Origin: an uncultured Candidatus Saccharibacteria bacterium
Lineage (GTDB): Bacteria > Patescibacteriota > Doudnabacteria > UBA920
Direction of reading: 5' to 3'
Assembly (NCBI GenBank): GCA_964474825.1
Contig: CAYYWQ010000001.1
Span: 229,609-293,608 of the forward strand
DNA: 64,000 nucleotides
Part shown: piece after piece, positions 3,437 to 25,100 of the stretch
How positions within the stretch are numbered: the stretch's first letter is position 1
How the letters are laid out: each line of letters begins with the position of its first letter
Program-made: the position numbers and the translations under genes
The notes under the pieces: model-generated
Told to the model about the DNA's origin: nothing
Seen by the model: only the letters and a program-made list of their open reading frames with translations
Database searches by the model: none

Positions 3437-3437
3437 T

Positions 3438-3812: not shown

Positions 3813-3833
3813 ACAAAAATTAAAATTGTATTT

Positions 3834-6630: not shown

Positions 6631-6654
6631 AAATAAATATAAGAATAGTTAAAC

Positions 6655-6685
6655 AAAAATCGGCGTTGTCGCCGATTTTTGTTTT
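6655..6685 (+). terminator. rho-independent terminator after 656-aa gene
   Basis: aaaaatcggcg-ttgt-cgccgattttt hairpin followed by T-run. Confidence 0.6.
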
Positions 6686-6767
6686 ATGCAAATTTTCGTA
6701 TAAGAAAAGCTAGTTTAAAAAATTATAATAATTAGCAATGAACTTTAAAAATTTTTGTAACTATGCT

Positions 6768-6805
6768 ATCCTTACATAACTGACGGCCGTCAGTTATGTA
6801 AGGAT
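6768..6805. promoter_or_regulatory. 38-bp perfect palindrome (candidate operator) upstream of PaaX-like gene
   Basis: atccttacataactgacgg|ccgtcagttatgtaaggat is exactly self-complementary; shares 18-bp core aactgacggccgtcagtt with the palindrome at 7365-7388. Confidence 0.55.
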
Positions 6806-6825
6806 GTGAATTAACGTAAAAGTTT

Positions 6826-7350
6826 ATGTCAAAAAAATACGGAACCCTGTCGGGAGAATTTTTAAAAATTTTGGGTAAGGCGACCGGATTTTTTACCTGG
6901 CCCATTGAAGGGACTGAAGGTTGGCGCTACGAACAACTATATGGTTCCAGAAGGAATTTTTTGAACACAGTCTCGCATTTAAAAAAGCGAGGGATGGTTA
7001 AATCAGTCAGCCGTCAAGGTAAAAATTTTTTGGAATTAACTTCCAAAGGACAATTGGAACTTCTTTTGCAAAAAGCTGTTGTTAAAACAGTGGCTAAGTG
7101 GGACGGTAAATGGAGAATGGTTATTTTTGACATTCCCGAAGATGCCAGGGACAAAAGGGATACCTTAAGGAGACTTTTAAAAACCAATCAATTTGTAATG
7201 TTGCAGGCCAGCGTGTTTGTTAGTCCCTTTCCTCTTAACAGGGAAGCCGTGGATTATTTAAAGCAAACAGGGCTAATTGCTTTTATAAGATTTGGAAAAA
7301 TTGAAGAACTTGATGATGATCGTGATTTAAGGAAAAAATTCAAGTTGTAA
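6826..7350 (+). CDS. PaaX-like (PaaX_C-type) small transcriptional regulator
   Basis: WDGKWRMVIFDIPEDARDKRDTLRRLLKTNQFVMLQASVFVSPFP resembles PaaX family central/C-terminal region; 174 aa. Confidence 0.45.
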   Translation: MSKKYGTLSGEFLKILGKATGFFTWPIEGTEGWRYEQLYGSRRNFLNTVSHLKKRGMVKSVSRQGKNFLELTSKGQLELLLQKAVVKTVAKWDGKWRMVIFDIPEDARDKRDTLRRLLKTNQFVMLQASVFVSPFPLNREAVDYLKQTGLIAFIRFGKIEELDDDRDLRKKFKL

Positions 7351-7364
7351 ATATTAAGTCATAG

Positions 7365-7388
7365 CCAAACTGACGGCCGTCAGTTTGG
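7365..7388. promoter_or_regulatory. 24-bp perfect palindrome downstream of PaaX-like gene / upstream of VirB6-like operon
   Basis: ccaaactgacgg|ccgtcagtttgg; same 18-bp core as 6768-6805. Confidence 0.55.
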
Positions 7389-7500
7389 TGAGGATGATTG
7401 CGGATTTTAGAATTGTTGGCACTTGGGGAAAAGTGGTAAAATTGACTTTAATCAAAATAAAGCCTGTCAATCACAGGATTTTGTGTTTTATAAATATTTG

Positions 7501-7509
7501 TGGTATAAT
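7501..7509 (+). promoter_or_regulatory. extended -10 promoter element (TGgTATAAT) upstream of 7631 gene
   Basis: tggtataat about 120 nt upstream of the TTG start. Confidence 0.3.
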
Positions 7510-7630
7510 TTTAACATTAGTTGAGGGTAAAAGTACTGTATTTGCTGAAGTTTTAAAACAAGGATTAAGCACTGCAAATACCAAAGAAATTTGTAAAATA
7601 CCACTCTTTTCTTAAACAAATTCCACATTC

Positions 7631-10600
7631 TTGCGGAAATTAAAACAAAAATTTAAAACTTCTGTTTTTAGCCTGGTTTTGATTATCATCCTGCTTTCCG
7701 GTCTTGGTGGTTTTTTTGTTTATCCCAAAACTGCAAAAGCCGCAGGGAATGTTTATAATTTCAGCGATATTGTGCTTACAGAAACTGTTGAGGTTTCCAA
7801 TAACCAAAACGGACCTTGGAATAACGTAAATTTTGTACGGGTAGGAAAAGACTCTAATTTTTACGTGAAAGTTACAATTCAGGTGGCTTCTTTGAAGAAT
7901 ACAAACAATCAGGTTGTAACCAGCTTTGATACAAAAAATGACTCGGTGTTTAATCCCGGTTGGTACAACACCAATTTTTCGATTAGTGGAGTAGGGTCAA
8001 GTTTTGTGGCTAAGGTTACCCAGGAACAAGCCGCGGCAATTAAGCAAAAAATAGAAGCAGGAGCTGATCCTAAAACCGTTGGGGGAATCCCTTGTTTTAA
8101 AGAAAGTATGACCAGCGGTGGAGGGGCGGCTTTAAACGGTGTGGTAATTGTAGGGGCGAGTGCGGCGGTGGCCTTGACTGGTGGGGCGGCTTTAAGCGCC
8201 GGAGCCCTGGCTGTTGGAGGTAGTGCTGTTGGTACTGCTGCAGGTGCTGCTGTGCAGAATGTGGCACTTTTTATAGCTATAAACGGCAGTACAGTTGCTG
8301 GCGGCAGTACAGCAGCAACGCTTGCTACTTTTAGGCCTGCTGCGGCATCCGATTATATAAAGTGCGACGGCCCAATTGGAGGCAGTAATCAACCCGGACC
8401 TCAAAGTCCGGGTGCTGTTCCGGTCGGTGGCACTTTATTTTCTAGCACTGTTACCGTTCCCGCGACTGCGTATGCGAATTTGGGACTTTCACAGCAGGCG
8501 GACGCAACAAAAGAATCCAGCACTCAGCCGGTGAATGAATTTTTTGTGGTACCGAACGTTTATTTTTCATCCTGGTTGGGGGTGAGGAATGACTTTATGT
8601 CAACCATTGGAGCAGGGAAGAGTATTTACGTCCAGCTTTATGATACTCAGGAGAATGCGAATAAACACGCAAGCGAAGCAGTGCCGTCTTCGGTTCCAAA
8701 TAACGGGAGCAACACCGGAAGCGGTACTAATCTTGGCGATGGAGGAAGCGGACTTCTTGGTTTGATTAACAAAATTATTGGAATTATTGTTGGTATTCTT
8801 TCTGAGCTGGCCTACTTAATATTTTACACACTGCTGGCGCCAATGATCCAGGCCATGCTTTCCATTCATACATACTCCGACACTTTTGTCGGGGTAATTT
8901 ATCCTGCCTGGATTGTAGTGCGCAATGTTTGCAATATTATTTTTATTGTCGCCATTATTGCCATAGCCATGGGTACGCTTTTCCGCGTGGAAAGTTACCA
9001 GTATAAGCACCTGTTAGTGCAGTTAATTATTGCCGCCCTGCTTGTGAATTTTAGTTTGGTTATTGGCCAGGCGATTTTAGGGATTGCGGACACCGCGCAG
9101 AACCAGTTTTTACCCAACAATGTGGAAGTTGTTCGCTCCCTTGGAAAGAATTTAATGGTGCAGTATCGCCCCGACGTCTGGAATATGGATTTCGCCGGGC
9201 ACGGTTATTTTAGCGACACTGTAAAGCAGTTGTTCTTTTTAGCTATGTCCTTGGGAAGCTTGGCGGTGTTTGCGGCCATAGCGGTATTTTTGGTTATTAG
9301 GATTGTGGCCTTGTGGATATTCCTTATGATTTCCCCCATAGCTTACGTGGCAGGAGTATTGCCCACTACCGCCAAATATAGGTCTGAATGGTGGAGTAAT
9401 TTTATTAAGTATGCTTTTTTTACGCCCATTATGGCGTTCATGCTTAACATTGCAGCTTACATTGCCAATATGCAGACCAACAATGGCGTGCTTAATTATC
9501 TTAAGGTGGACCCGAGTACTTTAGGCGGTAGTAATTTTGCCTCTTTTGTGGTACAAATTTCCAGTAATGTAATTTTATTGGTCTTCCTCTTTGCCGCCAC
9601 AATGGTAGCGGAAAAAATGGGCATCTACGGCGGCGACATAGTCTCTAAAGTTGGCAAACAAGGTTTGCTTGCGCCTTTTGCTGGCGCCAAGTTTTTGACT
9701 AAAGACGTTGCTGGGGGATGGGTAAAGAAGCATTACGATAAAAAGACTGAAGGTCTCGCAAGCGGGAAAATATTACCAGGACTTTTTGGAGACAAAGGAG
9801 GTCAGTGGCTTTCCCGACAGCTTTTTAAAGTTGCTCACCCTATTACCACTGTTGGAAAAATAAGGGAAGAAAGCAAGGAAGAGAGAGAGTTATATAAAGC
9901 ACGCGTGGAGGCAGCGGCAGTAAAAGTTGCCAGAAAACAGTTTGGTTGGAGAAGAATGACAGAAGACCCGATGTATCTTTTTGATGAACATAAAGGAAAG
10001 GAACTTTATGAAAAAGAAGAAGGTCAATGGTCGCCTAATGAACAAGTCAATGTGGGTAAAATAAATAGGCTGGCCGAAGAATCTAAAAAAGGGGACTTAC
10101 GTGCTCGTGTAAAGCTTAAATTTGCCTTGGCAGAAGCTTTTAGAAACAGGAACCTGAACGAAGTTATGGGAGGGGAGAATGGATTAGCTGCTAGGAATCC
10201 AGAATTATTTGGAGGCCCTCTTAATTATAATGCAGACAATATAAGGTTTTTTTTCCAGCAAATGACCGAAGGCGGTTATTTAGACGAAGATTTTACAAGG
10301 GAATTTTTAAAAGACATCGGTAGAGATGCATATGAGAAAGGTGACTTCAATGGAGCCGAGCTCGTTTACAGCGACCCAAAAACAGGCCATCCTCATATGA
10401 TTCACATGGCTCCGCGGGACGAGGAGGGAAATTCTTTACCTGTCGGCTGGAATGATTATGTACAAAAAAGAGAAGAATTTATTAGAGATGCTGATGCGAT
10501 CGGTAAACGAAATGCTGTTACCGTAGGTAAAGCAAAAGCTGTCACAAAAGCCACTAAAAATCTTGGTCCTGGGGCAACTCCAGCCCAAATTGCCGCAGAA

Positions 10601-11260
10601 GCTGCAATTCTTGAAGCAGACGAAATAGAAAGAGCGACGGGTCCGGAAATAGCAAAAGCACTTAAGGCCTTGGAAGATCCGTACGCTGAAAGTAATCATG
10701 ATTATGCGAATTCAATGCATGCGGAACGTGGTAGGAATTATATGAAGATTAACCTGTCAAAGAAAAAAGGTGGTCAGCAAATGGATATGTTCCATGACTC
10801 TCTTATTAACGTTGGAGTAGAAGATGGAGAAGCTGTTTTAAGTGATGCGGGTACCCAAGCATTAGGTAAAATTGACGAGCAGTCAATCTACGCTTTGCTT
10901 AGGGACAACATGGCTCCCAAAACTAAAGATAAGTTTAAGCTTTATACCAAAGGGATTGCAGTCAATGAGGCAAAAACTATTGCAAAAATTCAAAATCAGT
11001 TAACTAAGGTGGTAAGAGATGAGAACCGCGAAAAAGGAGTATTTATGACAGACCCCGAGATTGCCAAGCAGGTGGAATCAAGAACAAATTTATGGCTTGC
11101 TGCTTCGGCAGGTTTGGCTTCTGGTGAGCAGGCTCAAACTGTCATGCGAGCATTTGAACTTAAAACAGATCCTAATACTAATATTACAGAAACTTTAGCA
11201 GAAAGGGATTTAAGAGTTAGGGCAGAGTTGATTAAAAAGATTAAAGACAGTCAAAAGTAA
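7631..11260 (+). CDS. VirB6/TrbL-like polytopic membrane protein with Gly/Ala-rich extracytoplasmic region and ~500-aa charged C-terminal domain
   Basis: TTG start; signal/TM; 6-7 TM helices between aa ~380-690; organisation resembles VirB6/TrbL giant variants. Confidence 0.5.
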   Translation: MRKLKQKFKTSVFSLVLIIILLSGLGGFFVYPKTAKAAGNVYNFSDIVLTETVEVSNNQNGPWNNVNFVRVGKDSNFYVKVTIQVASLKNTNNQVVTSFDTKNDSVFNPGWYNTNFSISGVGSSFVAKVTQEQAAAIKQKIEAGADPKTVGGIPCFKESMTSGGGAALNGVVIVGASAAVALTGGAALSAGALAVGGSAVGTAAGAAVQNVALFIAINGSTVAGGSTAATLATFRPAAASDYIKCDGPIGGSNQPGPQSPGAVPVGGTLFSSTVTVPATAYANLGLSQQADATKESSTQPVNEFFVVPNVYFSSWLGVRNDFMSTIGAGKSIYVQLYDTQENANKHASEAVPSSVPNNGSNTGSGTNLGDGGSGLLGLINKIIGIIVGILSELAYLIFYTLLAPMIQAMLSIHTYSDTFVGVIYPAWIVVRNVCNIIFIVAIIAIAMGTLFRVESYQYKHLLVQLIIAALLVNFSLVIGQAILGIADTAQNQFLPNNVEVVRSLGKNLMVQYRPDVWNMDFAGHGYFSDTVKQLFFLAMSLGSLAVFAAIAVFLVIRIVALWIFLMISPIAYVAGVLPTTAKYRSEWWSNFIKYAFFTPIMAFMLNIAAYIANMQTNNGVLNYLKVDPSTLGGSNFASFVVQISSNVILLVFLFAATMVAEKMGIYGGDIVSKVGKQGLLAPFAGAKFLTKDVAGGWVKKHYDKKTEGLASGKILPGLFGDKGGQWLSRQLFKVAHPITTVGKIREESKEERELYKARVEAAAVKVARKQFGWRRMTEDPMYLFDEHKGKELYEKEEGQWSPNEQVNVGKINRLAEESKKGDLRARVKLKFALAEAFRNRNLNEVMGGENGLAARNPELFGGPLNYNADNIRFFFQQMTEGGYLDEDFTREFLKDIGRDAYEKGDFNGAELVYSDPKTGHPHMIHMAPRDEEGNSLPVGWNDYVQKREEFIRDADAIGKRNAVTVGKAKAVTKATKNLGPGATPAQIAAEAAILEADEIERATGPEIAKALKALEDPYAESNHDYANSMHAERGRNYMKINLSKKKGGQQMDMFHDSLINVGVEDGEAVLSDAGTQALGKIDEQSIYALLRDNMAPKTKDKFKLYTKGIAVNEAKTIAKIQNQLTKVVRDENREKGVFMTDPEIAKQVESRTNLWLAASAGLASGEQAQTVMRAFELKTDPNTNITETLAERDLRVRAELIKKIKDSQK

Positions 11261-11289
11261 AAATAAAAAGTTTTTAAATTTTAGTTAAA

Positions 11290-12447
11290 ATGACCCTTGA
11301 AGAAGTAAAAGAAATAATAACCAATTCCAAATTTAATCCTGATTTAAAGCAGAGGATGGTTTTATTTTTGCCCAGGCTAGGTAAAAATTCTTTAGAGAGT
11401 TTAGGAAAGGAAGTGAGTAGGGGAGATTCGGTAATAATTGCGGAATATTTAACATCTTTATGGGAAAGCTTTGCGAATTTTTTGGACGGGCTTAAAAATA
11501 AAGACCAGAATGCGTTAAGAGACCTGTCGGAATTCTTTGCAAAAAGACTCTCAAGATTTAATGACGAAGATGAATTTTACACATTAGGCTTTGTGTTGGA
11601 CGTACGCGCTATTGGCCGAAGAGCTCAGACTCAGCTTAGCGCTGAGCAAAATAAGAAGTTGCTTGATTTTGAAATCAGAATGTTTTGGGATTTACCCAAA
11701 GAAGAGGTGCTTTATTTGCTGCGTAATAATATTTTGTATTTACTGGAAAAAATTAATCTTTTAGAGTATACCCGGGCAGCAATTTATAAAAATAATTGGG
11801 ATGAGGGTGATACGTTCAATCAACTATTCCTAGACGCATTGCTACAGAATAAAGAAATGCTAGGGAGCGGGGAATCCAAACCTGTTGGGGTATGGATTAA
11901 GGATTTTTTAAGTTTTTCTGTGCCCACACATTCTCAAGCCAGCACTTTTGGGGTTGCCGAGTTTTTGTTAAGAGGTCCTTCAATCAAAGAGCTTTCTAAA
12001 ATCGAAAAAGAAGGGTTGGCGGAAATTTTAAATTTATTTGTTTGGCTAACAGAGCCAATTATAGTTGTAGACGAAGTTCGCAAATTTATTGAAAAAACCA
12101 AAGAAGCACAGTCTGAGGAAGTGACGCCGAGTAGCTTTCAGAATACCCAAAGGTTTACTTTGCCACCCGAACTTTTAAATGCTAGTAAGCCTATTGTAAA
12201 ACCAGCAGCTCCTCCTTTAGTGCCCGCGCCGGGTAACCAGCCGGTGGCAAAAAAAGTGCAAATGGGGGAGATATCACAGCCGCAACAGATGGTCCAGCCT
12301 GAGAGGCCAACCAAAACAACAGTAAACTATATTACCCAGAAGCCCACGCAAAACCAGCAGCCAACTAAGGCTGAAAAGTATTTACAGCAGGAAATAGACA
12401 GGAAGCTACATAAACTAGAAGAAAAAACAAAGGGGAGTAAGAAGTAG
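11290..12447 (+). CDS. hypothetical protein (385 aa), P/Q-rich C-terminus
   Basis: ORF in tight operon spacing (29 nt gap); no TM; no recognisable family. Confidence 0.5.
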   Translation: MTLEEVKEIITNSKFNPDLKQRMVLFLPRLGKNSLESLGKEVSRGDSVIIAEYLTSLWESFANFLDGLKNKDQNALRDLSEFFAKRLSRFNDEDEFYTLGFVLDVRAIGRRAQTQLSAEQNKKLLDFEIRMFWDLPKEEVLYLLRNNILYLLEKINLLEYTRAAIYKNNWDEGDTFNQLFLDALLQNKEMLGSGESKPVGVWIKDFLSFSVPTHSQASTFGVAEFLLRGPSIKELSKIEKEGLAEILNLFVWLTEPIIVVDEVRKFIEKTKEAQSEEVTPSSFQNTQRFTLPPELLNASKPIVKPAAPPLVPAPGNQPVAKKVQMGEISQPQQMVQPERPTKTTVNYITQKPTQNQQPTKAEKYLQQEIDRKLHKLEEKTKGSKK

Positions 12448-12470
12448 ATAGTAGCTAGAATAAAGAGAAT

Positions 12471-13898
12471 ATGGAAAACGAACATCAACAAAAAATTCAA
12501 AATTTGGTTAAGGTCTCCTCTATATTAGTAGAGGCGGAAAAGAATGAGTGGTTGGAGTTAATGGATTTAATGAATGACCGCCAGCTTTTGGAATTGGAAA
12601 GAATTTTGCAGGATTCGGGCAACAACCAAAAAGCCGTGGTTGCAAAAGAAGGGGAAAAGCCCTCCCAGGTGCAATCTTTGAAAAGCAAGCCCATAGAAAC
12701 CCAACCAGTTAAAAATCCTGCCACCTCCCCTTTTAGCCATATTTTAAATTTCCCCAAAGCTCCGGGCGCGCAGCCTCTTCCTCCAATAAAGCCTTTGCCA
12801 ATAGTCCAGGCTAAGGTGGAGAGCAGGATTGTTGAGCCCAAAAAACAGTCGCCATTTTTGGCAAAACTAAAAAATATTTTTACGGAAAAAGAGTTGCCGG
12901 CTCCGCACCAGGGCGCTTTGTCAGACCATAGTGTGGTTAAGGATTTACCGGTTAAAGCTAAGCCTGTTCCGCCAAAGCCGCAGCCACATCATTTAAAACT
13001 GAAAGAACAGCTAAAGAAGCCGGTGGAGGAAGCTCCAAAGCCAAAATTGCCTGAGCCTGTCAAAAAGCCGGTAGAAGAACCTGTTTTGCCAAAAGCACCC
13101 CAGCAGCCCGAGCCAAAAAAACCGGAAAATGTAACCATAAATGTTTTTCTTAATGACCAAACAAAACAAGGGCAGGGTTTGGGCGTTGCCCAGGCCCAAA
13201 GCGCGCTAGAGCAAGTGTCTGCCGCCGGTCTGCCTACGGGCGGGAAGCCGGATGAGCTTAGCCAGCAAATTGCCGAGTCTATGTCCGCGGCGGTTCCACC
13301 CCAGGCAAAACAAAGTGTTCCTTCAAAGTCTACTCCGGCTCGTCCGTCCGATCCTGAGGTTGCCAATAATCACGCTAAAAGCGGTTGGGGACAAACAGAA
13401 GAAGGTCTAATAAATTCAAACCGCAATAAAGAAAATGTTAAAGCGGCTGTGGCTGCCGCTGTTAGCACAGTAGCTTATGGCTTAAATTTTCCTGAAGGTT
13501 CCAGTGCCGAAGCTTTAAAAAGCAGGTTAACAGGTACGAGTCAGCAATCTATTGGCGGCAAGGCTGCCCCGGCCCCTGCAGGGACAAAAATTGTGCTCCA
13601 AGAAAAGCCCGGAGACAATATAAAGCTTGAGACTTTGGCAGATATAGATGTTTTAAAGCCTGACGACCTCAAACAACACGCTACCGGCACAATGTTCCGC
13701 AAGCTCCAAAAGCTTGTGTCGGTGAACGGCCTGCACGAAGTGGTGCGCCATATGGAAATTAGTCCTTTGTACAAAGCCTATATAGAAACCGGGGTCGCGT
13801 TATTAAAAGAAGATGCCAACCGTAAGTCCGCGCCTCTTACCAGCAGCGATTTTGAACGCTTTGTAGACCTTCTTATTATGATGAGATCTAAATCTTAA
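12471..13898 (+). CDS. hypothetical protein with proline-rich KKPVEE(A/P)... repeats
   Basis: internal repeats KKPVEEAPKPKLPEP / KKPVEEPVLPKAP; 23 nt gap from upstream gene. Confidence 0.5.
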   Translation: MENEHQQKIQNLVKVSSILVEAEKNEWLELMDLMNDRQLLELERILQDSGNNQKAVVAKEGEKPSQVQSLKSKPIETQPVKNPATSPFSHILNFPKAPGAQPLPPIKPLPIVQAKVESRIVEPKKQSPFLAKLKNIFTEKELPAPHQGALSDHSVVKDLPVKAKPVPPKPQPHHLKLKEQLKKPVEEAPKPKLPEPVKKPVEEPVLPKAPQQPEPKKPENVTINVFLNDQTKQGQGLGVAQAQSALEQVSAAGLPTGGKPDELSQQIAESMSAAVPPQAKQSVPSKSTPARPSDPEVANNHAKSGWGQTEEGLINSNRNKENVKAAVAAAVSTVAYGLNFPEGSSAEALKSRLTGTSQQSIGGKAAPAPAGTKIVLQEKPGDNIKLETLADIDVLKPDDLKQHATGTMFRKLQKLVSVNGLHEVVRHMEISPLYKAYIETGVALLKEDANRKSAPLTSSDFERFVDLLIMMRSKS

Positions 13899-13926: not shown

Positions 13927-14367
13927 ATGCAATTTTCCGTACCACAATTTACTGAGGTAGAAGATAAAATAATTGGCCCGCTGACTATTAAGCAGTTTGG
14001 TATTATTTTTGGCGGCGGAGTTTTCGTGTTTATTGCTTTCACTCTTACAAAGAGCATGGCAGTCTTAATTATTTCCGGTTTGTTTTTTGGCTTGCCTACC
14101 TTAGGCTTAGCTTTTGGCAAACTAAACGGCAGGCCGATTTATAACATGCTAGGTAATTTGTTGGCATTTATTACCAGTCCTAAGGTTTTAATTTTCCATA
14201 AACAGGGAGTGCTAGCATCAGACAATAAGCAGAAAGACGAGGCGCTGGGAGCAAAAACAGCTGCCGATGTTAACATGAGCACTGCCGCCACCTCGCGTCA
14301 AAGACTTACCGAAGTCAATAAACTATTAGAAAAACAGGCGGCTGAGGAGAGGGAATTATTGAAATGA
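13927..14367 (+). CDS. VirB3/PrgI-like small two-TM membrane protein
   Basis: 146 aa, two adjacent TM helices (GIIFGGGVFVFIAFTL / AVLIISGLFFGLPTLGLAF); position just upstream of VirB4. Confidence 0.4.
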   Translation: MQFSVPQFTEVEDKIIGPLTIKQFGIIFGGGVFVFIAFTLTKSMAVLIISGLFFGLPTLGLAFGKLNGRPIYNMLGNLLAFITSPKVLIFHKQGVLASDNKQKDEALGAKTAADVNMSTAATSRQRLTEVNKLLEKQAAEERELLK

Positions 14368-14452: not shown

Positions 14453-15136
14453 ATGAAATTAGAAATGCAGGAAAAATCCACAACAACGGCAAAGTCCACA
14501 CAAAGCTTTTTGCCTATTAGTGAAATAAAAAATGACGTGGTCGTTTTAAACAACGGCACTTTGCGCGCGATTTTGGCGGTATCCAGCACTAATTTTGACT
14601 TAAAAAGTCAGGATGAACAAAATGCCATTATTTATAATTTCCAGCGTTTTTTGAATTCTTTGGAATTTTCAGTGCAAATTTTAATGCAAAGCCGGAAAAT
14701 GGAAATTGGCACTTATTTGGAAAAGCTAAAAGGGATTGCCGAAAAACAGACAAATGAGCTGCTTAGGGTCCAGACTTTGGAATATGTGGAATTTATTAGC
14801 CGGCTTATAGAAAACGCCAGTATTATGAACAAGAATTTTTACGTTATTGTCCCGTTAGACGAAAGTATAACGCCCCAGGCGGCCGGATTTTTTAGCCGGA
14901 TTTTTGGGGGAGGTAAAACCAAGGAATTAAAGCAAAAAGTTGAAAATTTTGAAAAACTTAAAGAGAAGCTCGATAACCGGATTTCTGCGGTTAGTTCCAA
15001 TCTTTCCAGTATTGGCCTGCAATCTTCGCCGCTTAAAACAGAGGCTATTATTCAGCTCTATTACAACTCCTACAATTTTGACGCCGCTCCAACACTAGAC
15101 CCGAATAAATTAAAAGAAATGAAAATAGCGCAGTAA
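14453..15136 (+). CDS. VirB4/TrbE N-terminal domain-like protein (possible detached N-terminal part of VirB4)
   Basis: LNNGTLRAILAVSSTNFDLKSQDEQNAIIYNFQRFLNSLEFSVQI matches the CagE/TrbE/VirB4 N-terminal pattern; in frame with the next ORF, separated only by TAA TAA TTT. Confidence 0.45.
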   Translation: MKLEMQEKSTTTAKSTQSFLPISEIKNDVVVLNNGTLRAILAVSSTNFDLKSQDEQNAIIYNFQRFLNSLEFSVQILMQSRKMEIGTYLEKLKGIAEKQTNELLRVQTLEYVEFISRLIENASIMNKNFYVIVPLDESITPQAAGFFSRIFGGGKTKELKQKVENFEKLKEKLDNRISAVSSNLSSIGLQSSPLKTEAIIQLYYNSYNFDAAPTLDPNKLKEMKIAQ

Positions 15137-15142
15137 TAATTT

Positions 15143-16987
15143 ATGTCAATTTTTAAAATAAAAACCGAAAAAGAACTGGAAGAAAAAAAATCCATGCTCC
15201 AGGAGGCGGAGCAGGAGCGTGATTTAAGCAAGAAAATTACCGATGTTGAAAAGACTTACCGTGAGGGTCTTACAACCTTGAAAGATTTAATTGCCCCGGC
15301 GAGTCTGAAGTTTGAAAGCTCTTATTTTGAATTAAACGGCAAGTTTGCACGAAGCTTCTTTGTTTTGGCATACCCCAGGTTCCTTTCCAGTAACTGGCTG
15401 TCTTTTATTATACAGGCCGAAGGCGCTCTGGATTTGTCCATGTATATTTATCCAATAGACTCCGAAACAATTTTAAAAAAGTTAAAATCTAAAGTCGGGG
15501 AGCTGGGCAGCCAAATGTCCATTAACCAGGAAAAAGGTGGCGTACGTGACCCAATGCTGGAAACGGCCTATAAAGACGTGGAAGGTTTACGGGACCAGCT
15601 TATGCAAGGTACTGAGCGTTATTTCCGTTTTGCCCTGTATTTTACTATTTACGCGGACGACTTAAAGGAATTAGACAAGAACTCTTCCACTTTGGAATCC
15701 GCTTTGGGCGCTAAACTTATTGTTACCAAGCGGGCAATAATGCAGACCCAGCAGGGTTTTAATTCCACTTTGCCTTTTGGTAAAGACGAGCTGGATGTTG
15801 GTAACAACATGAACACCAGTCCGCTGTCTACATGTTTTCCTTTTGTTTCCTCTGACTTAACGGGTAACGATGGTATTTTATATGGCATTAACCGCCACAA
15901 CAACAGTTTAATTCTGTTTGACAGGTTTGCCATGGAAAATGCCAACTCCGTAATTTTTGCCAAATCCGGCGCCGGGAAATCTTACGCGGTTAAACTGGAA
16001 GTACTGCGGCATTTAATGATAGGCACGGACGTGGTAATTATAGACCCGGAAAACGAATACAAACATTTGGCCGATGCCGTGGGTGGCACGTACTTGAGCG
16101 TTTCGTTAAATTCCAATTCCCGTATTAACCCGTTCGATTTGCCCGTTGCAATAGAAGGGGAAGACAATGCTGATGTTTTGCGCTCGTCGGTAGTTAACTT
16201 GCTTGGTTTGTTCAGTTTAATGCTCGGCAAGTTAAACCCAACGGAAGAAGCTTTAATGGACAAGGCCATTTGGCAGACTTATGCCAAAAAAGACATTACC
16301 GCGCAATCGGATTTTAAAACCGTAGAATATCCGACAATGAACGATTTAATAGAAATCCTGCATGGTATGGTGGGCGCGGAAAGTTTGGCTCAAAGGTTGA
16401 CTAAATATACCGAAGGAACTTTTGCCGGGTTATTTAACCAGCCAACCAATGTGGTTTTAAATAATCAGTTGGTGGTTTTTTCCATCCGAGATTTGGAAGA
16501 TGAATTGCGGCCCATTGCAATGTATATTATTTTAAACCATATTTGGAACATTGTGCGCAGTGAGCTAAAAAAACGCATTTTGGTGGTTGACGAAGCCTGG
16601 ATTATGATGCAGCACGAAGACAGCGCGCGGTTTTTATTTGGTATTGCCAAACGCGGGCGCAAGTATTATTTAGGTCTTACCACGGTAACCCAGGACGTTG
16701 CCGACTTTATGGCCAGTCCATACGGCAAGCCTATTGTAACCAACTCTTCCATCCAGCTGTTGTTAAAACAATCGCCGGCGGCTATAAATATTATTGCCGA
16801 CACCTTTTTCTTAACAGAAGGTGAAAAATATTTGCTTTTGGAAAGCGAAGTTGGGGAAGGTATTTTTTTTGCCGGGCTTAAGCACGCGGCAATTAAAATA
16901 TATGCATCTTATGTGGAAGACCAAATTATTACCACCGACCCAAAACAGCTTTTGGAAATTCAGGAAAGCCAGGAAAAATTAAGCTAA
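15143..16987 (+). CDS. VirB4/TrbE/CagE-family T4SS ATPase
   Basis: Walker A FAKSGAGKSYAV, Walker B ILVVDEAWIMM, conserved RKYYLGLTTVTQDVADF block. Confidence 0.85.
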   Translation: MSIFKIKTEKELEEKKSMLQEAEQERDLSKKITDVEKTYREGLTTLKDLIAPASLKFESSYFELNGKFARSFFVLAYPRFLSSNWLSFIIQAEGALDLSMYIYPIDSETILKKLKSKVGELGSQMSINQEKGGVRDPMLETAYKDVEGLRDQLMQGTERYFRFALYFTIYADDLKELDKNSSTLESALGAKLIVTKRAIMQTQQGFNSTLPFGKDELDVGNNMNTSPLSTCFPFVSSDLTGNDGILYGINRHNNSLILFDRFAMENANSVIFAKSGAGKSYAVKLEVLRHLMIGTDVVIIDPENEYKHLADAVGGTYLSVSLNSNSRINPFDLPVAIEGEDNADVLRSSVVNLLGLFSLMLGKLNPTEEALMDKAIWQTYAKKDITAQSDFKTVEYPTMNDLIEILHGMVGAESLAQRLTKYTEGTFAGLFNQPTNVVLNNQLVVFSIRDLEDELRPIAMYIILNHIWNIVRSELKKRILVVDEAWIMMQHEDSARFLFGIAKRGRKYYLGLTTVTQDVADFMASPYGKPIVTNSSIQLLLKQSPAAINIIADTFFLTEGEKYLLLESEVGEGIFFAGLKHAAIKIYASYVEDQIITTDPKQLLEIQESQEKLS

Positions 16988-17070
16988 CGATTAACGATTG
17001 ACAATTAACAATTAACTTCTGATTTTGGGGTTAAACGTTAATCGTGAATTGTTAATTGTTTTTTTATTTT
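16988..17070 (+). terminator. hairpin/heptad-repeat structure with T-run after VirB4
   Basis: AACGATT/AACAATT heptad repeats and inverted GTTAATC/GTTAATT copies followed by ttttttatttt. Confidence 0.4.
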
Positions 17071-19641
17071 ATGGCGGACGATAATAAAAATTCGACGGCA
17101 GCTTCCGCTGATCCCACGGCGAGTACGGGAAGCAGTAGTGATACCAGGCCGAGGGGTGTAACTAACGGCATAAATTTGCCCGCCAGGTTTGATGTTAGGG
17201 GCCGTAACGTATCCATAAATACAGCCCACATTAACCGTGTTTTTGTTAATGTAAGACAAAGCTCTCTTTCCATAAGAACCAATGACCAAGTTTCTTTTGA
17301 AGGAATTGGTTTGCGGCCTTATACACACATAGTTTTCGCAACAAAATCCGAAGGGCAGCCCCTTATTCCCCCTGTTCAAAAAAGCTCCGAGAGCAGCGAT
17401 GTTCAGCTGATTTTTGAAATTCCGAAAATAAATTACGATGGTCTAATAGAAATAGAAATTATCAGCAATTCTGATTCGGATTACGATAAGGCAATTAACA
17501 GCCCTTCTTTTGCTTATTTTAATAACGAGGAAGAGGATGAAAAAAATAAATCTAAAACTTCAAAGGAGACTGAAGAGGAAAGAATAAGAAGCGAAAATGA
17601 AAAGTCCCATCTTATTTCCGATTTGGTTAATGCGCCTTTGGGAGTTATTGGGGCGGCGTTTGGGGGCGCAAAAGGAACAGGCTCAAGCGCTCAGACGGGA
17701 AATAAAAAACCAGCGACTGCATCCGCTGTAACGCCCGTTAAACAGGAGGCTAATGAAGATTTTGATACGCAAGAAGAGTCCCAGGTACAAACATCCAGTG
17801 TTGTTTTAACGGAAAATGAACAACAGGCCGCGGAACTGGTTGGTGAATATATAGACAAAAATCCTGAAGTAATTAGTGACGTTAGAATTCGCAATGAAAT
17901 TTTAGGGACTTTGGGGAGCGGCCAGCAAGGCCAGGTGGATTTGTCACAACTTAGCGGAGAGGCGCGGCAAACTCTGCAGACAACAGTCGCGCAGTCTGTA
18001 AAATCTCAAACCGGCCAGGGAGCACAAAGGCTTCAGGAGGCTTATGGGCAACTGGAACAAAAAATCCAAGTTCAAGGCGGAGGCGGCGGAGGTTCTGTTA
18101 CTGCCAGCACGCAGGTGCAAGCGCAAGGCGGAGGCAGCGGGCAGGTAAGTGGAGAAGTCAAAGCTGAATCAAAGTCGGCCGCAGAAATAAAAGCTAAAAC
18201 ATCGACAGAGGCTAAAGTTTCTGGGCAAATGCAAGGACAGGCGCAAGCCTCTTTCGGTGGCGTTGCCCCTTCAGCTGCCACGGCTGAGGTTTCCGCCCAA
18301 GGGACGCAGCCGGCAAAAACCAGCCCTGTCCAGCGGCAAAATATGGAAGTGGTGGGGGAGTATTTAGACAAAAATCCAAATAAAATTTCAAGTGCAGATT
18401 CAGGGACAAGGAACAGGATTATACAGGCCTTGGCTTCGGGAAATACCGACAGCTTAAATAAAAACGACCAAGAAGTTTTAAAGAAAACTTTAAATGCGCT
18501 GGGCCAAGACAGTTTGGCTCCGGCTGCTGTTAGATTGGCCGCAGATAATTTATCTGAAGGCGAAAAGCAGCCCTCTACCGAGCCTGTAAAAACCGCTACG
18601 GGTTCACAGCAGGAAAATCTTGCCGGAGGCGCTGGTAAGCCTTTGGATTCTGCCGGTCCAAAAAATGAAGCGGAAGAAGTGGGGCGGCCCCCTAAGGAAG
18701 CTTTAGAAATATTAAACAGACTAAAAAAAGAAGAAAAACCTTTGCCTCCGGGCGTGGTTGCTCCTCCAAAGCGTGGGGCTTCCGCAATTTCCGACCGGGC
18801 AGGGTTGGGAGGGCCATTAAAAAATGGCAGTGATATTAATGGACAGACGGAAGGGGTGTCGCCAGCTAAAAATTTGCCTGCTGTTACGGAGCCTAGAACA
18901 GGAGCCGGGGAAGGCGGGGAGCCTACAAGCAATGTTAATTCCACTCAGCTGCCTAAGTCTACAGAGCAAAATCCACCAACCGAACGGCCTAATGAGGAGG
19001 CTCCGGAAGGCGGTGCGCCGGACTCAGGAATGCCTCCCGTAAACCCGAAGGCCAGCCCAACTGCGCCGGTTTCTGATCCCACCAAAACAGATGAGCCGGA
19101 ATCTGATTCTTCCACACCCGCGCTCCCTGCCGCGGCCGCAACCGGGGCTGCAAATACCGCATTAGGCAATAAAATCTATAAAGAGGTAGGTGAAGTTGCT
19201 TCCAGTCAAATTTGGTATTTTGGTTTTTCAAGCTCCTGTCTTACGCTTTTTTCCGGCTTTGATTTTATGCTTGGCGGCATTGTAATGGCGGCGTATTGGA
19301 TTTTTGGGCACAGGAAAAATAAAGAACTGTTTCCATTAAAACGGTGGCAAAAAGCCGTAACCATTTTAGCCTTTATTTTACCAATTGTGTATTTGGTTGT
19401 TACAATAGAATTAATTATTTACGTTGGCTGCAATAGCCCCGTAGAATATAATGCAATCAGTAAATACAAACTTACGTATATTGGTTCTGTGTATCCGGAT
19501 GTTTGCGAAAGTATGGGGGCGGCTACGAATACAGGGGTCGGCGCCGGTGGGGGTACTCCAACTTTAAATCCCTCGGCCCCTCCAGCCGCTGCTCCGGCTG
19601 TCCCTCCTGCAGCCCTACAACCGCGTGGCTCCAGCCAGTAA
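17071..19641 (+). CDS. hypothetical large Q/G/A-rich protein with C-terminal TM segments and Pro/Ala tail
   Basis: ATG at 17071 (ORF track uses TTG 17056); internal repeat VGEYIDKNPEVIS / VGEYLDKNPNKIS; two hydrophobic helices near C-terminus. Confidence 0.5.
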   Translation: MADDNKNSTAASADPTASTGSSSDTRPRGVTNGINLPARFDVRGRNVSINTAHINRVFVNVRQSSLSIRTNDQVSFEGIGLRPYTHIVFATKSEGQPLIPPVQKSSESSDVQLIFEIPKINYDGLIEIEIISNSDSDYDKAINSPSFAYFNNEEEDEKNKSKTSKETEEERIRSENEKSHLISDLVNAPLGVIGAAFGGAKGTGSSAQTGNKKPATASAVTPVKQEANEDFDTQEESQVQTSSVVLTENEQQAAELVGEYIDKNPEVISDVRIRNEILGTLGSGQQGQVDLSQLSGEARQTLQTTVAQSVKSQTGQGAQRLQEAYGQLEQKIQVQGGGGGGSVTASTQVQAQGGGSGQVSGEVKAESKSAAEIKAKTSTEAKVSGQMQGQAQASFGGVAPSAATAEVSAQGTQPAKTSPVQRQNMEVVGEYLDKNPNKISSADSGTRNRIIQALASGNTDSLNKNDQEVLKKTLNALGQDSLAPAAVRLAADNLSEGEKQPSTEPVKTATGSQQENLAGGAGKPLDSAGPKNEAEEVGRPPKEALEILNRLKKEEKPLPPGVVAPPKRGASAISDRAGLGGPLKNGSDINGQTEGVSPAKNLPAVTEPRTGAGEGGEPTSNVNSTQLPKSTEQNPPTERPNEEAPEGGAPDSGMPPVNPKASPTAPVSDPTKTDEPESDSSTPALPAAAATGAANTALGNKIYKEVGEVASSQIWYFGFSSSCLTLFSGFDFMLGGIVMAAYWIFGHRKNKELFPLKRWQKAVTILAFILPIVYLVVTIELIIYVGCNSPVEYNAISKYKLTYIGSVYPDVCESMGAATNTGVGAGGGTPTLNPSAPPAAAPAVPPAALQPRGSSQ

Positions 19642-19721
19642 GGCCTCAATTTTGAGCCCTGAAATTTTTATGCTATAATAAATCCATATAAAAAAGTTTA
19701 GGGAAACCAAAACAAATATTT

Positions 19722-20864
19722 ATGAATAAAAAAGCTATTGCTATTTTGGGCGCCATTTTTCTCTTAATTGTGGGGACACTGGGATTTTTAATATACTCCA
19801 AATATGGAACTAAAAAAACACCCGAAGTTGTTGTGAATGTACCAAACAACGGCGGTGGTGATCCAACGCCCTCTGTAACTCCTACTCCTGAGCCAACAGT
19901 TGCGGCTTCGGGGGCTAATAAATTATTAGACGGCCCAATAGTATCTCCGGCTTTGTTTTATAACGGTCAGGGAGTCACATATTTTGACGCAGCCGGCCAG
20001 CTCTACCAGGTTAATATTCAGCAGGGGAATGGACAACCCCAGGCGTCTTCACCGCAGCCTTTAGGTATTCAAACCAAAGCAAATATTACCAAGGTTATTT
20101 GGCCCCCCCTTGGAGATGATTTTATTACTGAGTCCGTTAGCGGTTCTCAGAAATCCTGGAGTTTTTATAACAGCAAGTCCAGAATTTACCAGGACATACC
20201 AAGCCAGGTTGTGGCTTTTGACTGGCTTCCTTCGGGACAGCAGGTTTATTATATTTGGGTGGAAAACGGCAAGGCGGCTTTAAATGTAGGTGATCCCAAC
20301 ACTCAAAATTGGAAATACATTGCTGATATGTGGGAGACAGACGATGTAATTAGTGTTTCCCCTGACGGGAAAAACATCCTTTATTATGAACAGAATACAG
20401 CTACCAGCACTAACCCAATTAACTGGTTAACTTCGGACGGGAAGCTCTGGAAAACTTTGGTTAGCACGGGAATAAATTATGGCGTACTATGGAGCCCGGA
20501 CAGCCAGAAGTTTTTGTTTGGTAAAAAAGATTCCACGGGGACCACTTACCAATTGTGGTTTTATAATTTACTGACCGGAGAAGTAGGGAATACAAAACTA
20601 AACGCGACCGTGGAGAAGGCGGTGTGGAGCAAGGACAGCCAGACAATTTATGCGGCAGTGCCAAATAGCGGCGATGCCGGAAACGGTGGCCTGACAGCTG
20701 ACATGTTTAATAAATTTAACATTGCCACCGGAGACAAAAAACAATATGACGCCGGTGCCCAGGTAATTGACGGTGAAAATTTGTTTTTAAGCAGTGATGA
20801 ATCCCTATTGTTGTTTAAAAATGCCCAGGATGGTGGTTTGTACTATTTGAACTTAAACCAGTAA
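19722..20864 (+). CDS. membrane-anchored TolB-like / PD40 beta-propeller protein
   Basis: N-terminal TM; repeated SPDGK / WSPDSQ / WSKDSQ beta-propeller motifs. Confidence 0.5.
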   Translation: MNKKAIAILGAIFLLIVGTLGFLIYSKYGTKKTPEVVVNVPNNGGGDPTPSVTPTPEPTVAASGANKLLDGPIVSPALFYNGQGVTYFDAAGQLYQVNIQQGNGQPQASSPQPLGIQTKANITKVIWPPLGDDFITESVSGSQKSWSFYNSKSRIYQDIPSQVVAFDWLPSGQQVYYIWVENGKAALNVGDPNTQNWKYIADMWETDDVISVSPDGKNILYYEQNTATSTNPINWLTSDGKLWKTLVSTGINYGVLWSPDSQKFLFGKKDSTGTTYQLWFYNLLTGEVGNTKLNATVEKAVWSKDSQTIYAAVPNSGDAGNGGLTADMFNKFNIATGDKKQYDAGAQVIDGENLFLSSDESLLLFKNAQDGGLYYLNLNQ

Positions 20865-20942
20865 AAGTATATAGTAGTTAGTAGATAGCCTATTGTGGTT
20901 AGATTTTCTAACTACTATTTGCTAAATACTAACTACTTTTTT

Positions 20943-22274
20943 ATGCCTAAATTATCTGTAATTTTTGTTTGTACTAATTGCGGGTACCGTACTCCCCGTT
21001 GGCAAGGTAAATGCCAGCAGTGCGGGCAATGGAACACTTTGGAAGAAAAGCAGGAAATTAGAAGCGGGAAACAAGGTGCCTTAAGGGCCGCTTCTGAACC
21101 TGTTAATTTACAGGGAGTGCAAATTTCTGACCGGCAGCGTTTTGTAACCGGCATAGGGGAGTTCGACGAGGTTATTGGCAGCGGTATAGTGCCGGGCAGT
21201 TTGATTCTTCTTGGTGGAGATCCTGGTATTGGTAAATCCACTTTAGCTCTTCAGCTAAGCATGAAAATGCCGGACGGAGACGTTCTTTATGTTAGCGGCG
21301 AGGAATCTGTCCACCAAATTAAACTCCGTGCCAGCCGTATAAACCAAAAACATGAGTTGGATGTTTTAGCGGAAACAGACTTAGAAACAGTTTTGTCTAC
21401 CGTGGAAAGCCAAACACCCAAATTGGTAATTATAGATTCCGTGCAGACAATGTACAGCGAATCAGCCAGCGGCGTAGCGGGCGGAGTTGCGCAGGTGACA
21501 AACGCTGTGCAGCGCATTATGCGCACGGCTAAACAAAACCACATATCGTTCATTTTAATAGGACATGTTACCAAAGAAGGCTACTTAGCTGGTCCAAAAA
21601 CTTTGGAACATATGGTAGACACGGTTTTGTATTTGGAAGGGGAGCGGTTTGCGAGTTTCCGCATTTTGCGATGCGTTAAAAACCGTTTTGGCACTACTAA
21701 CGAAGTCGGCGTGTTTGAAATGCAAGGGGAAGGTTTAGTAGAAGTTAAAAATCCGTCGCAATTATTTTTGGGCGAAGAAAGCATAAAAGCTTCGGGCAAC
21801 GTGGTTACTTCTATTTTAGAAGGCAGCCGCGCGTTACTTTTAGAAATTCAGGCGCTTACATCGGCCTCTAACTTTGGTTATCCTAAGCGCACTACCGCTG
21901 GATTTGATGCTAACCGTTTACAATTACTTACCGCAATTTTAAGCAAACGAGCGGGCCTTAATTTGTCCAACCAGGACATTTACATAAATGTTGTAGGCGG
22001 AATAAAAATAGACGAACCTGCCGCGGACTTGGCTGTTGCTATGGCCATAATTTCTTCTTTAAAAGATATTGTTATTGAAAAAACAGTTATTATTGGTGAA
22101 CTAGGACTCTCGGGTGAAGTCCGTTTTGTGCCGCAACTGGAAAAAAGGATTAAAGAAGCGCAAAAATTAGGTTTTGAAAAAATAATCTGCCCCAAAACAA
22201 AAATCGCCGGCAAATTCGGCGACGTAGAAATAATTGGTGTTAGGACACTTGGGGAAGCTATAAAAAGTTTGTAG
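20943..22274 (+). CDS. radA: DNA repair protein RadA/Sms
   Basis: N-terminal C4 zinc finger CTNCGY...CQQCGQW, Walker A GGDPGIGKSTLALQ, Lon-like C-terminal domain; ATG at 20943 preferred over upstream ORF start. Confidence 0.9.
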   Translation: MPKLSVIFVCTNCGYRTPRWQGKCQQCGQWNTLEEKQEIRSGKQGALRAASEPVNLQGVQISDRQRFVTGIGEFDEVIGSGIVPGSLILLGGDPGIGKSTLALQLSMKMPDGDVLYVSGEESVHQIKLRASRINQKHELDVLAETDLETVLSTVESQTPKLVIIDSVQTMYSESASGVAGGVAQVTNAVQRIMRTAKQNHISFILIGHVTKEGYLAGPKTLEHMVDTVLYLEGERFASFRILRCVKNRFGTTNEVGVFEMQGEGLVEVKNPSQLFLGEESIKASGNVVTSILEGSRALLLEIQALTSASNFGYPKRTTAGFDANRLQLLTAILSKRAGLNLSNQDIYINVVGGIKIDEPAADLAVAMAIISSLKDIVIEKTVIIGELGLSGEVRFVPQLEKRIKEAQKLGFEKIICPKTKIAGKFGDVEIIGVRTLGEAIKSL

Positions 22275-23012: not shown

Positions 23013-25100
23013 TTATTCAAAATGTATGACCTTGTCTTTTATTTTTTCTTTTAAGAGCGGGTAGTTATTCAATTCCAAATCACCTTTTAATATTTTTAAA
23101 GCTTCTTTGCGGGCTGGCTCAATTAACGAAGTGTAGGCCGGGGAAAAATATTTAAAGTTCCAACCGGATTGGGAGGAGCCGTAAATTTCGCCAAAGCCTC
23201 TTTGTTTTAAATCTAGTTCTGCCAGTTCAAAGCCGTCTGTAGTTTTTGTAAAATTTTCCAGGCGGTTTAGGGTTTCTTTTTGGGCATCTGTAAGAGGCAT
23301 GGCAACCGCCGTAGGCTCACTTGGCGCGGTAGGAAACAGGAAACAATAGCTTTGGTGCTCAGCACGCCCAACGCGCCCGCGGAATTGGTGTAATTGGGCC
23401 AGGCCAAACCGCTCCGCGCCTTCTATTAGCATAACCGAAGCATTTGGCACGTCTACGCCGACTTCTACCACAGATGTAGAAACCAAAATTTGGATTTTAT
23501 TTTCCAAAAATTCTTTCATTACATCTTCTTTTTCTTTGCCTTTTAAGCGCCCATGCATTAGGCCAATTTTGAATTGCGGAAAAAGTTTTTGTAAAATTTC
23601 AACTTCAGTTTTGGCGGCCTTTATGCCTAACTTATCACTTTCTTCAATTAAGGGGGTAATTACAAATACCTGCCTGCCTAATAAAATTTGCTCCTTAATA
23701 AATTTGTAAGCCTTTGCCCTGTCCTCGGCTTTTACTAATTTGGTAATTATGGCCTTGCGCCCCAGAGGCTTACTTTTAATTTGGGAAATTTCCAGTTCGC
23801 CATAATATGCCAACTGCAAAGTGCGGGGGATTGGAGTCGCGCTTAAAGAAAGCAAATGGGGGACCTTCCCTTTTCGGTTCATTAGTTCAGCCCGTTGCTC
23901 CACGCCAAAGCGGTGCTGCTCGTCAATAATTACCAAGGCCAGATTTTTAAATTTTACTTTTTTTTGCAAAAGCGCGTGTGTACCAATATATAGCCCGGGC
24001 ATTCCGTCTTGAATTAAGGCCTGAAGTTTAGGTTTACTAATTTCCTCACTGTTTATTTTAGAATAGGAATTGGTAATCAGCCCGATTTTTAATTTAGCAT
24101 TGGCAGATTTTAAAAATTTTGAGGCAGTTTGGAAATGCTGGTTGGCTAAAATTTCAGTTGGGGCCAAAAGTGCCACTTGGTATTCGCTAGTAATTGCCTG
24201 CAGTGCCGCCATAAGGGCCACTAAAGTTTTGCCACTGCCAACATCGCCTTCCAGCAGCCTGTTCATTGGTTCCGGTTTTTCCAAGTCCTGTAAAATTTCC
24301 CAGGCGGCCTTTTTTTGCCAGGAAGTTAATTGAAACGGCAGGGAATCCACAAAAGTTTTTATAAGTTCCTGGTCAAATTTTACGGCAAAAGATTTTTTAG
24401 CCTTAAGCTTTAACTTGTATTGCTGGGCTAATAGCTGGTTATAAAATATTTCTTCAAAAGCCAGTCGTTTTTTTGCTTCTTCTACGTCATTATTACTTTT
24501 TGGGAAATGTGAAAATTCCGCGGTCTGCTCTAAATTTAAGATTTTTTGGTTTTTTATAATAGTTTCGGGTAAAGTATCTACCAGCTGTGTTAAAGCGGGT
24601 AAAGCCGAAGCCACTAAATTGCGGAAAGTTTTAGGGTAGATTTTTTGGGAAAGATGGTATAACGGCACCAACCGGGCGGTGTGGACAGGGAAGTCTGAAA
24701 CTTTTTCGTACAGCGGATTTGTCAGCTGTAAAGTGTTTTTGTAATAGTCAGGAGCGCCGGCAAGGAAAACCTCGTCGCTCACTTGTAAATTGTTGGCAAT
24801 ATAGGCCTGGTTAAACCAGGTTACTTTAAGCGAACCGGTTTCGTCAGACACCACGGCTTCCGCAAGCGACATTCTGCTCCTAAAAGAAAACCGGCTGGAA
24901 ATATTTTTTATAGTTACGTGTAAAGAAATATTTTCACCCGCAACAATGTCTTTTATTTCTACCACTTTGGAAAAATCCAGGTAGCGGTAGGGGAAATGTA
25001 AAAGCAAATCCCGGACCGTTTTGATTCCAAGGTTTTTTAAAGCCGCAATAAGCGGCTTTTGGGTTTTGGGTAAATTTTCTATCGGGTCTTGGAGCAGCAT
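23013..25100 (-). CDS. recG: ATP-dependent DNA helicase RecG
   Basis: Walker A GDVGSGKTLVA, DEQHRFG (DEQH box), wedge/OB N-terminal domain. Confidence 0.9.
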   Translation of the reverse strand: MLLQDPIENLPKTQKPLIAALKNLGIKTVRDLLLHFPYRYLDFSKVVEIKDIVAGENISLHVTIKNISSRFSFRSRMSLAEAVVSDETGSLKVTWFNQAYIANNLQVSDEVFLAGAPDYYKNTLQLTNPLYEKVSDFPVHTARLVPLYHLSQKIYPKTFRNLVASALPALTQLVDTLPETIIKNQKILNLEQTAEFSHFPKSNNDVEEAKKRLAFEEIFYNQLLAQQYKLKLKAKKSFAVKFDQELIKTFVDSLPFQLTSWQKKAAWEILQDLEKPEPMNRLLEGDVGSGKTLVALMAALQAITSEYQVALLAPTEILANQHFQTASKFLKSANAKLKIGLITNSYSKINSEEISKPKLQALIQDGMPGLYIGTHALLQKKVKFKNLALVIIDEQHRFGVEQRAELMNRKGKVPHLLSLSATPIPRTLQLAYYGELEISQIKSKPLGRKAIITKLVKAEDRAKAYKFIKEQILLGRQVFVITPLIEESDKLGIKAAKTEVEILQKLFPQFKIGLMHGRLKGKEKEDVMKEFLENKIQILVSTSVVEVGVDVPNASVMLIEGAERFGLAQLHQFRGRVGRAEHQSYCFLFPTAPSEPTAVAMPLTDAQKETLNRLENFTKTTDGFELAELDLKQRGFGEIYGSSQSGWNFKYFSPAYTSLIEPARKEALKILKGDLELNNYPLLKEKIKDKVIHFE

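Follow-up and report, generated by a model that had tools for sequence, protein, structure and literature searches.

A TrsD-like gene adjacent to a VirB4-family ATPase gene in a Doudnabacteria secretion cluster

When the coding sequence of a secretion ATPase appears to be cut in two by stop codons, is it a broken gene, or are its two parts genes in their own right? This question is raised by a locus in a 64,000-nucleotide stretch of DNA from an uncultured bacterium of the Doudnabacteria lineage (hereafter the window; assembly GCA_964474825.1, contig CAYYWQ010000001.1, positions 229,609 to 293,608), in which two open reading frames (ORFs) follow each other on the + strand, ORF A of 227 aa (14453-15136) and ORF B of 614 aa (15143-16987). 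An earlier note on this DNA had described them as a VirB4 ATPase apparently split into two in-frame ORFs by tandem TAA stops, and had offered as explanations a genuine two-piece VirB4, a recent nonsense mutation or pseudogenisation, or a sequencing artefact. Our analysis indicates that A and B are very probably two bona fide adjacent genes of a chromosomal Patescibacteria type IV secretion system (T4SS), A being a TrsD-like protein that corresponds, by homology and collinearity, to the N-terminal segment absent from the VirB4 ATPase B. The two are conserved cistrons, complementary and collinear with a single-chain VirB4 and located beside a VirB3-like gene, and the pair is a normal and already published Patescibacteria arrangement, not a broken gene.

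Complementary parts of VirB4

Direct reading of the sequence gives TAA TAA TTT ATG for the junction (15134-15145, +). ORF A ends with GCG CAG TAA TAA, with its stops at 15134-15136 and 15137-15139, and after the three filler nucleotides TTT the ATG at 15143 starts ORF B. The starts of both ORFs leave the same remainder modulo 3 and therefore lie in one common frame, and the peptide LNNGTLRAILAVSSTNFDLKSQDEQNAIIYNFQRFLNSLEFSV, which the earlier note had read as a VirB4/TrbE N-terminal pattern, is found in the translation of ORF A. The coordinates, stops, frame and peptide on which that note was built were all verified in this way.

From its profile matches, ORF B is a VirB4-family ATPase without the first ~200 residues of canonical VirB4. 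It matches NF045971 (conju_CD1110) with 369.7 bits (cutoff 325) at profile positions 172-728 of 752, VirB4_plasma at 287-893 of 894 and TIGR00929 at 208-724 of 792, and since these matches begin at 172, 287 and 208, respectively, the complete VirB4 N-terminal domain (profile positions ~1-170) is not in the ORF B chain. What the chain does contain is the second N-terminal subdomain (PF03135, residues 45-211) and a RecA-like ATPase domain, with the TraG/AAA_10/DUF87 P-loop domains (PF19044, PF12846 and PF01935) at residues 263-567. This ATPase domain includes a Walker A motif, AKSGAGKSY (residues 273-281; 15959-15985, +), and a Walker B-type motif, ILVVDEAW (residues 479-486; 16577-16600, +), both read from the translation. 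The crystallised VirB4 C-terminal domain (PDB 4AG5) is matched by ORF B with an E-value of 2.7e-47. The N-terminus of ORF B is a helical leader of ~40 residues.

The VirB4 profile positions missing from ORF B are those matched by ORF A. In NCBIfam-type profile searches ORF A aligned with N-terminal positions only of full-length VirB4 models, namely 3-139 of 752 in conju_CD1110 (22.8 bits, E 2.4e-5), 95-233 of 894 in VirB4_plasma and 1-65 of 789 in PRK13853. Because each ORF covers a different part of the same full-length profiles, the two are complementary and not overlapping, and the expectation that the 227-aa piece would cover positions absent from the 614-aa piece was borne out. The finding of PF03135 in ORF B does not mean that A is duplicated in B, given that this domain lies downstream of the A-equivalent region and is not the extreme N-terminus of VirB4. 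Named as a possible refutation in the earlier note, the idea that ORF A is a paralogue of a region already present in ORF B did not hold, and A as a duplicate of the N-terminal domain of ORF B was rejected (BLASTP of A against B, E 0.21; hhalign between the two families, E 0.57). The other possible refutation, that ORF A belongs to an unrelated family of its own, stood in its first half only: A does have its own family (TrsD/TraD, with PF26593 TraC-like by precomputed annotation), but that family is homologous to the VirB4 N-terminus.

Natural fusions point in the same direction. Protein P0268 (797 aa) contains an A-like region (residues 5-208) followed by a B-like region 53% identical to ORF B, and P0177 (898 aa) has the same order, with its A-like region at residues 10-211 and a B-like region also 53% identical. 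Among the best 120 matches to P0268, 118 are fused proteins of 775-807 aa, which carry PF26593, PF19044 and mostly also PF11130 and which, where named, come from Colwellbacteria/Parcubacteria. Judging from these sequences, a sister clade, the Colwellbacteria, encodes both parts as one chain of ~790 aa. The fused proteins differ from the window in that their B-like part is without the ~40-residue leader of ORF B. Two further proteins in the set P0268-P0388, P0289 and P0385, are ~600 aa long and have no N-terminal part, while being 88% and 77% identical to P0268 over 75% of the query, which hints at further fission events or at truncated gene calls.

Structure prediction was in agreement with the profiles. 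An AlphaFold2 model of ORF A alone, built from a 77-sequence alignment, reached a pLDDT of 87.1, and in a Foldseek comparison with the PDB its 14 best matches were all TrwK/VirB4 of plasmid R388 (probability 0.92-1.00). Fold comparison was the only route by which this VirB4 likeness was detected in the PDB, where a single-sequence search with ORF A gave spurious PPR-repeat matches only and a profile search gave nothing relevant. When A and B were joined and modelled with a natural-fusion alignment (pLDDT 77.6, pTM 0.67), the model superimposed on TrwK chains of 750-808 residues over ~850-915 columns, with an E-value of 1e-25 and a TM-score of ~0.6. Profiles, fusions and models thus agree that A and B together would correspond to one VirB4, and among the explanations first offered it is the genuine two-piece VirB4 that these three lines of evidence favour.

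The model of ORF A also shows an order of secondary structure elements (three strands, helix, strand, two helices, strand, long helix, strand, helix) that recurs in the N-terminal domain of ORF B (residues ~55-210; 15143-15800). The VirB4 N-terminal region may therefore have arisen by an ancient internal tandem duplication, a reading taken from the models for which the A versus B profile comparison cited above was not significant.

With respect to family, a protein identical to ORF A is present in NCBI, and for this protein and all 120 best ORF A homologues the precomputed annotation lists PF26593 (TraC-like). ORF A has no hydrophobic segment in a hydropathy scan and is encoded between VirB3-like and VirB4-like genes, and as a predicted soluble protein in the range of ~200-230 aa with these flanking genes it fits the general pattern of TrsD/TraD proteins. 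The TraC and TraD of pELF (PMC13492992) are unrelated proteins.

Several observations weigh against this interpretation. The score of ORF A with the NF041427 TrsD/TraD model (34.7 bits, E 1.5e-8) is far below the curated cutoff of 200, and on this comparison ORF A is a remote relative of NF041427 lying outside that narrow subfamily. Our Pfam scan assigned ORF A to no family, presumably because the copy used was without the PF26593 model, so that PF26593 comes from the precomputed annotation only. The Foldseek E-values for ORF A alone are marginal (5e-3 to 9e-2), with TMq at or below 0.5 and the matched TrwK residues not reported, and the model of A and B joined, made from an artificial concatenation with an alignment of natural fusions, has no interface confidence (PAE) and is no proof of association in trans. 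Finally, ORF B is not preceded by a Shine-Dalgarno motif. However, the same holds for every gene of the cluster, none being detected within 25 nt upstream of any of the 12 genes between 2432 and 19722, and the missing motif before ORF B is for that reason uninformative.

Two genes across Patescibacteria genomes

If the stops in the window interrupted a once continuous gene, relatives with an uninterrupted gene could be expected, and the homologues of ORF A were surveyed at the level of proteins and of genomic loci. The database holds 1562 homologues at E <= 1e-3, of which the best 120 are 69-100% identical to ORF A and 216-286 aa long (all but one 216-239 aa); the few named proteins among these are from Doudnabacteria or Patescibacteria. 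An exhaustive search of 50%-identity representatives gave 2245 relatives, and among the best 150 of these, 148 are proteins of 132-443 aa without an ATPase-sized C-terminal part, the two long ones being the natural fusions. At the level of loci, we collected 55 from GTDB species representatives (Doudnabacteria, Paceibacterota, Adlerbacteria and others), with A identities of 38-81% and Candidatus Doudnabacteria as the nearest relatives of the window. The A homologue is a separate ORF in all 55 loci, with the B homologue next to it wherever the contig continues, and in each of the 49 loci with a scorable junction, which come from genomes of many studies, A and B are two separate ORFs. Some 50 genomes and hundreds of protein clusters therefore share the conserved two-gene state, and orthologous loci do carry the same split that had been noticed in the window.

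Across these 49 loci, the more a homologue of A differs from the window protein, the more its B partner tends to do so too (Spearman 0.87 for the identities), ORF A diverges faster than ORF B in every one, and the N-terminus of ORF B is conserved as M-[SAG]-[LI]-F. Many ORF A homologues have long low-complexity extensions at the N- or C-terminus. Homologues with N-terminal extensions of 100-140 aa were considered as possible PrgI (VirB3)-TrsD fusions, and this was rejected, as the extensions gave no PrgI match and consist of Q/P/N-rich low-complexity tails, with an unrelated membrane segment in one case.

The alternative that best withstands these data holds that ORF A, as a TrsD protein, is an independent accessory or regulatory secretion protein which shares ancestry with the VirB4 N-terminus but is not a VirB4 domain in trans. 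The faster divergence of A and the low-complexity extensions would suit such a protein, as would the report that TrsD homologues of Gracilibacteria are mostly not beside virB4 (PMC12102498). On the other hand, natural proteins that join the two parts covalently in this order are common, the profile coordinates of the two proteins are complementary, the joined model matches full-length TrwK, and the A and B genes are strictly adjacent and diverge together. For these reasons we consider this alternative, although the main surviving rival, to be unlikely.

A recent nonsense mutation or pseudogenisation of a continuous virB4 of ~841 codons is suggested at first sight by the common frame, the distance of only 6 nt and the lengths of the two ORFs, which sum to that of a canonical VirB4, and fused versions of ~790 aa do exist elsewhere in the phylum. 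However, the relative frame of A and B over the 49 loci is 0, 1 or 2 in 17, 14 and 18 cases, respectively, and the spacer ranges from -4 to ~525 nt (at or below 0 nt in three loci, with ATGA or TAATG overlaps, 1-30 nt in 23, 31-200 nt in nine and more than 200 nt in 14). Since relatives use all three frames, the shared frame in the window is a one-in-three coincidence, and the description of a VirB4 that is "in-frame" and "split by tandem TAA stops" reads too much into it. Two ORFs are found in all readable loci down to 38% A identity, both are intact and conserved, B has a conserved Met start motif, and the two consecutive stops would require two mutations. Moreover, because the fused proteins have no equivalent of residues 1-40 of ORF B, the junction in the window is not a point-mutated fusion junction. 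An uninterrupted orthologue that would mark the stop as lineage-specific was not found among the 49 readable loci. With two genes in all of these and 148 of the 150 representatives at 132-443 aa, a recent nonsense mutation is refuted by the comparison and is left with very little probability.

Equally improbable is programmed readthrough or recoding of the stops, by which a fused A-B VirB4 would be made in addition to A and B themselves. The common frame and the mere TAA TAA TTT between the coding parts would permit it, but no context terminates more strongly than tandem TAA TAA, and two-thirds of the relatives have A and B out of frame, overlapping (ATGA, TAATG) or with an inserted gene, so that this lineage can do without a fused product.

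A sequencing or assembly artefact at 15130-15145, which would be a general possibility for any metagenome-derived genome, has a negligible probability, because two independent short-read Logan assemblies from different sequencing runs (SRR14271372 and SRR14271365, used as a proxy for read support) match the window at every position of the 121-nt junction (15080-15200), each of them calling a 227-aa gene with the next gene 6 nt downstream, and because the same architecture recurs in 49 other genomes from many studies.

Some variation was seen around the pair. In ~14 of the 49 loci, of the Doudnabacteria type, the long A-B spacer contains an extra small gene of 119-139 aa on the same strand, which belongs to the TIGR02436 four-helix-bundle family (77-118 bits) in L005 (6685-7181), L012, L019, L021, L023, L027 and L041, and to the TIGR04256 GxxExxY family (38 bits) in L002, L007, L008, L009, L017, L024 and L025. 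Because two unrelated families of small genes have been inserted at the same site, the spacer looks like an insertion hotspot. Longer VirB4 ORFs, with C-terminal extensions, are present in L029 (6683-10009, 1108 aa), L030 (2212-4644, 810 aa), L031 (4302-6374, 690 aa) and L040 (7120-9249, 709 aa), and in L002, a long-read metagenome-assembled genome, the VirB4 gene looks frameshifted (7286-7615).

Related systems and a possible role for the pair

The arrangement agrees with what has been described for Patescibacteria by Quinonero-Coronel et al. (2025, Microb Genom; PMC12102498), who reported that, next to virB4, TrsD is the T4SS component of highest abundance in the phylum and found it to be remotely homologous to the VirB4 N-terminus, without an assigned function. 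According to the same work, Patescibacteria T4SS are chromosomal and usually without a relaxase, and those of the class ABY1 are located near comF, recG and radA. The window has the same TrsD and VirB4 pair with the PrgI/VirB3 gene adjoining, and the same context of radA (20895-22274), recG (23013-25100, -) and a comF-like gene (29816-30580, -), with no substantive difference from the published pair. We cite the TrsD-VirB4 homology from that work, because TrsD is not named in the searchable text of Guglielmini 2014. TrsD-VirB4 fusions and the complementarity of the two pieces are not mentioned in PMC12102498.

A more distant counterpart is found in the MPF-FATA conjugation systems of monoderms, in which the split TrsD/VirB4 architecture is a hallmark of the pGO1/pSK41 subclass. 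On Staphylococcus aureus pSK41 the order TrsC, TrsD, TrsE is that of PrgI, A and B in the window, with a small protein at the TrsC position, a TrsD of 227 aa, the same length as ORF A, and a TrsE of 672 aa (DUF87/VirB4-like) that is likewise without the N-terminal segment; the spacer is 14 nt. In hhalign, the A-family profile and pSK41 TrsD align over almost their whole lengths (E 3.3e-5; A residues 14-209, TrsD residues 32-217), and BLASTP aligns ORF B with TrsE collinearly and end to end (E 6e-42), although at 19% and 24% identity, respectively, these are very distant relatives. In contrast to the chromosomal system of Patescibacteria, the pSK41/pGO1 system is conjugative and has a relaxase and a coupling protein. 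Split pairs are also found on Bacillota plasmids from Halobacillus and Pontibacillus.

Canonical VirB4 proteins (TrwK of R388, PDB 7O41 and 8RTD; the CD1110 family of Bacillota) are covered over their whole length by A and B together, but they are single chains, whereas in the window the first ~200 residues form a separate polypeptide. Taken over all these systems, it is reasonable to suppose, and on balance we favour the view, that the first N-terminal subdomain of VirB4 is a detachable module which has been repeatedly fused and split, joined to the ATPase in Colwellbacteria and canonical VirB4 but separate from it in Doudnabacteria, many other Patescibacteria, plasmids of the pGO1/pSK41 type and some plasmids of Bacillota, and that TrsD is that subdomain supplied in trans.

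Under the reading of A and B as adjacent genes for two parts of VirB4, the two would be translated separately, A terminating at the tandem TAA stops and B starting 6 nt on at its conserved Met-Ser/Ala-Leu/Ile-Phe; translational coupling is possible, and the 6-nt spacer would be compatible with it. The products would then associate non-covalently, so that A provides in trans the first N-terminal VirB4 subdomain, with a predicted position on the side of the ATPase nearest the membrane, to which VirB3 binds in R388. The complex of A and B could then be the putative hexameric motor powering a secretion system on which the epibiotic lifestyle depends. If the subdomain is indeed a free subunit, stoichiometry or order of assembly could differ from those of canonical VirB4. 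The T4SS of which the TrsD-like and VirB4 unit forms part is required for epibiotic growth in the single species examined so far, and Ca. Southlakia epibionticum has a TrsD homologue that is essential (Wang et al. 2023, cited through PMC12102498). For annotation, the consequence is that A and B should stand as two genes, neither marked as a pseudogene nor joined in a single entry. What is added here to the literature is a single and modest refinement: the profiles, fusions and models suggest a testable assignment of TrsD as the VirB4 N-terminal subdomain in trans.

The surrounding secretion cluster

The ORF A/B pair is flanked by membrane proteins, as judged by a hydropathy scan. Directly upstream of ORF A lies a gene for a small PrgI-family (VirB3-like) membrane protein of 146 aa (13927-14367, +; PF12666 PrgI, E 6.7e-9, 36.6 bits, cutoff 27), which has one hydrophobic segment at residues 19-45. 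Directly downstream of VirB4 there is a gene for an 861-aa protein with C-terminal hydrophobic segments and no significant family match (17056-19641, +), followed by one for a PD40 beta-propeller protein (19722-20864, +). On the other side, a 1209-aa protein with ~8 hydrophobic segments in the hydropathy scan and no Pfam match (7631-11260, +) is encoded contiguously with the cluster and on the same strand, and from this topology we infer a candidate polytopic, VirB6-like channel component. A 124-aa protein of pilin-like size with two hydrophobic segments (3438-3812, +) is encoded further upstream.

More generally, same-strand genes without family matches flank the PrgI/TrsD/VirB4 core on both sides (2432-13898 and 17056-20864, +), and they include proteins with a single N-terminal hydrophobic segment. 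These genes probably encode the rest of the secretion system in a strongly diverged form. The starts of the ORFs at 7631 and 17056 are provisional, each being a TTG that is the first start codon after the upstream stop. Just upstream of the cluster, a 174-aa protein (6826-7350, +) has a PaaX central Cas2-like domain (PF20803, E 4e-21) and a weak match to PF09827 (Cas2), and the window also contains ksgA at 878-1711.

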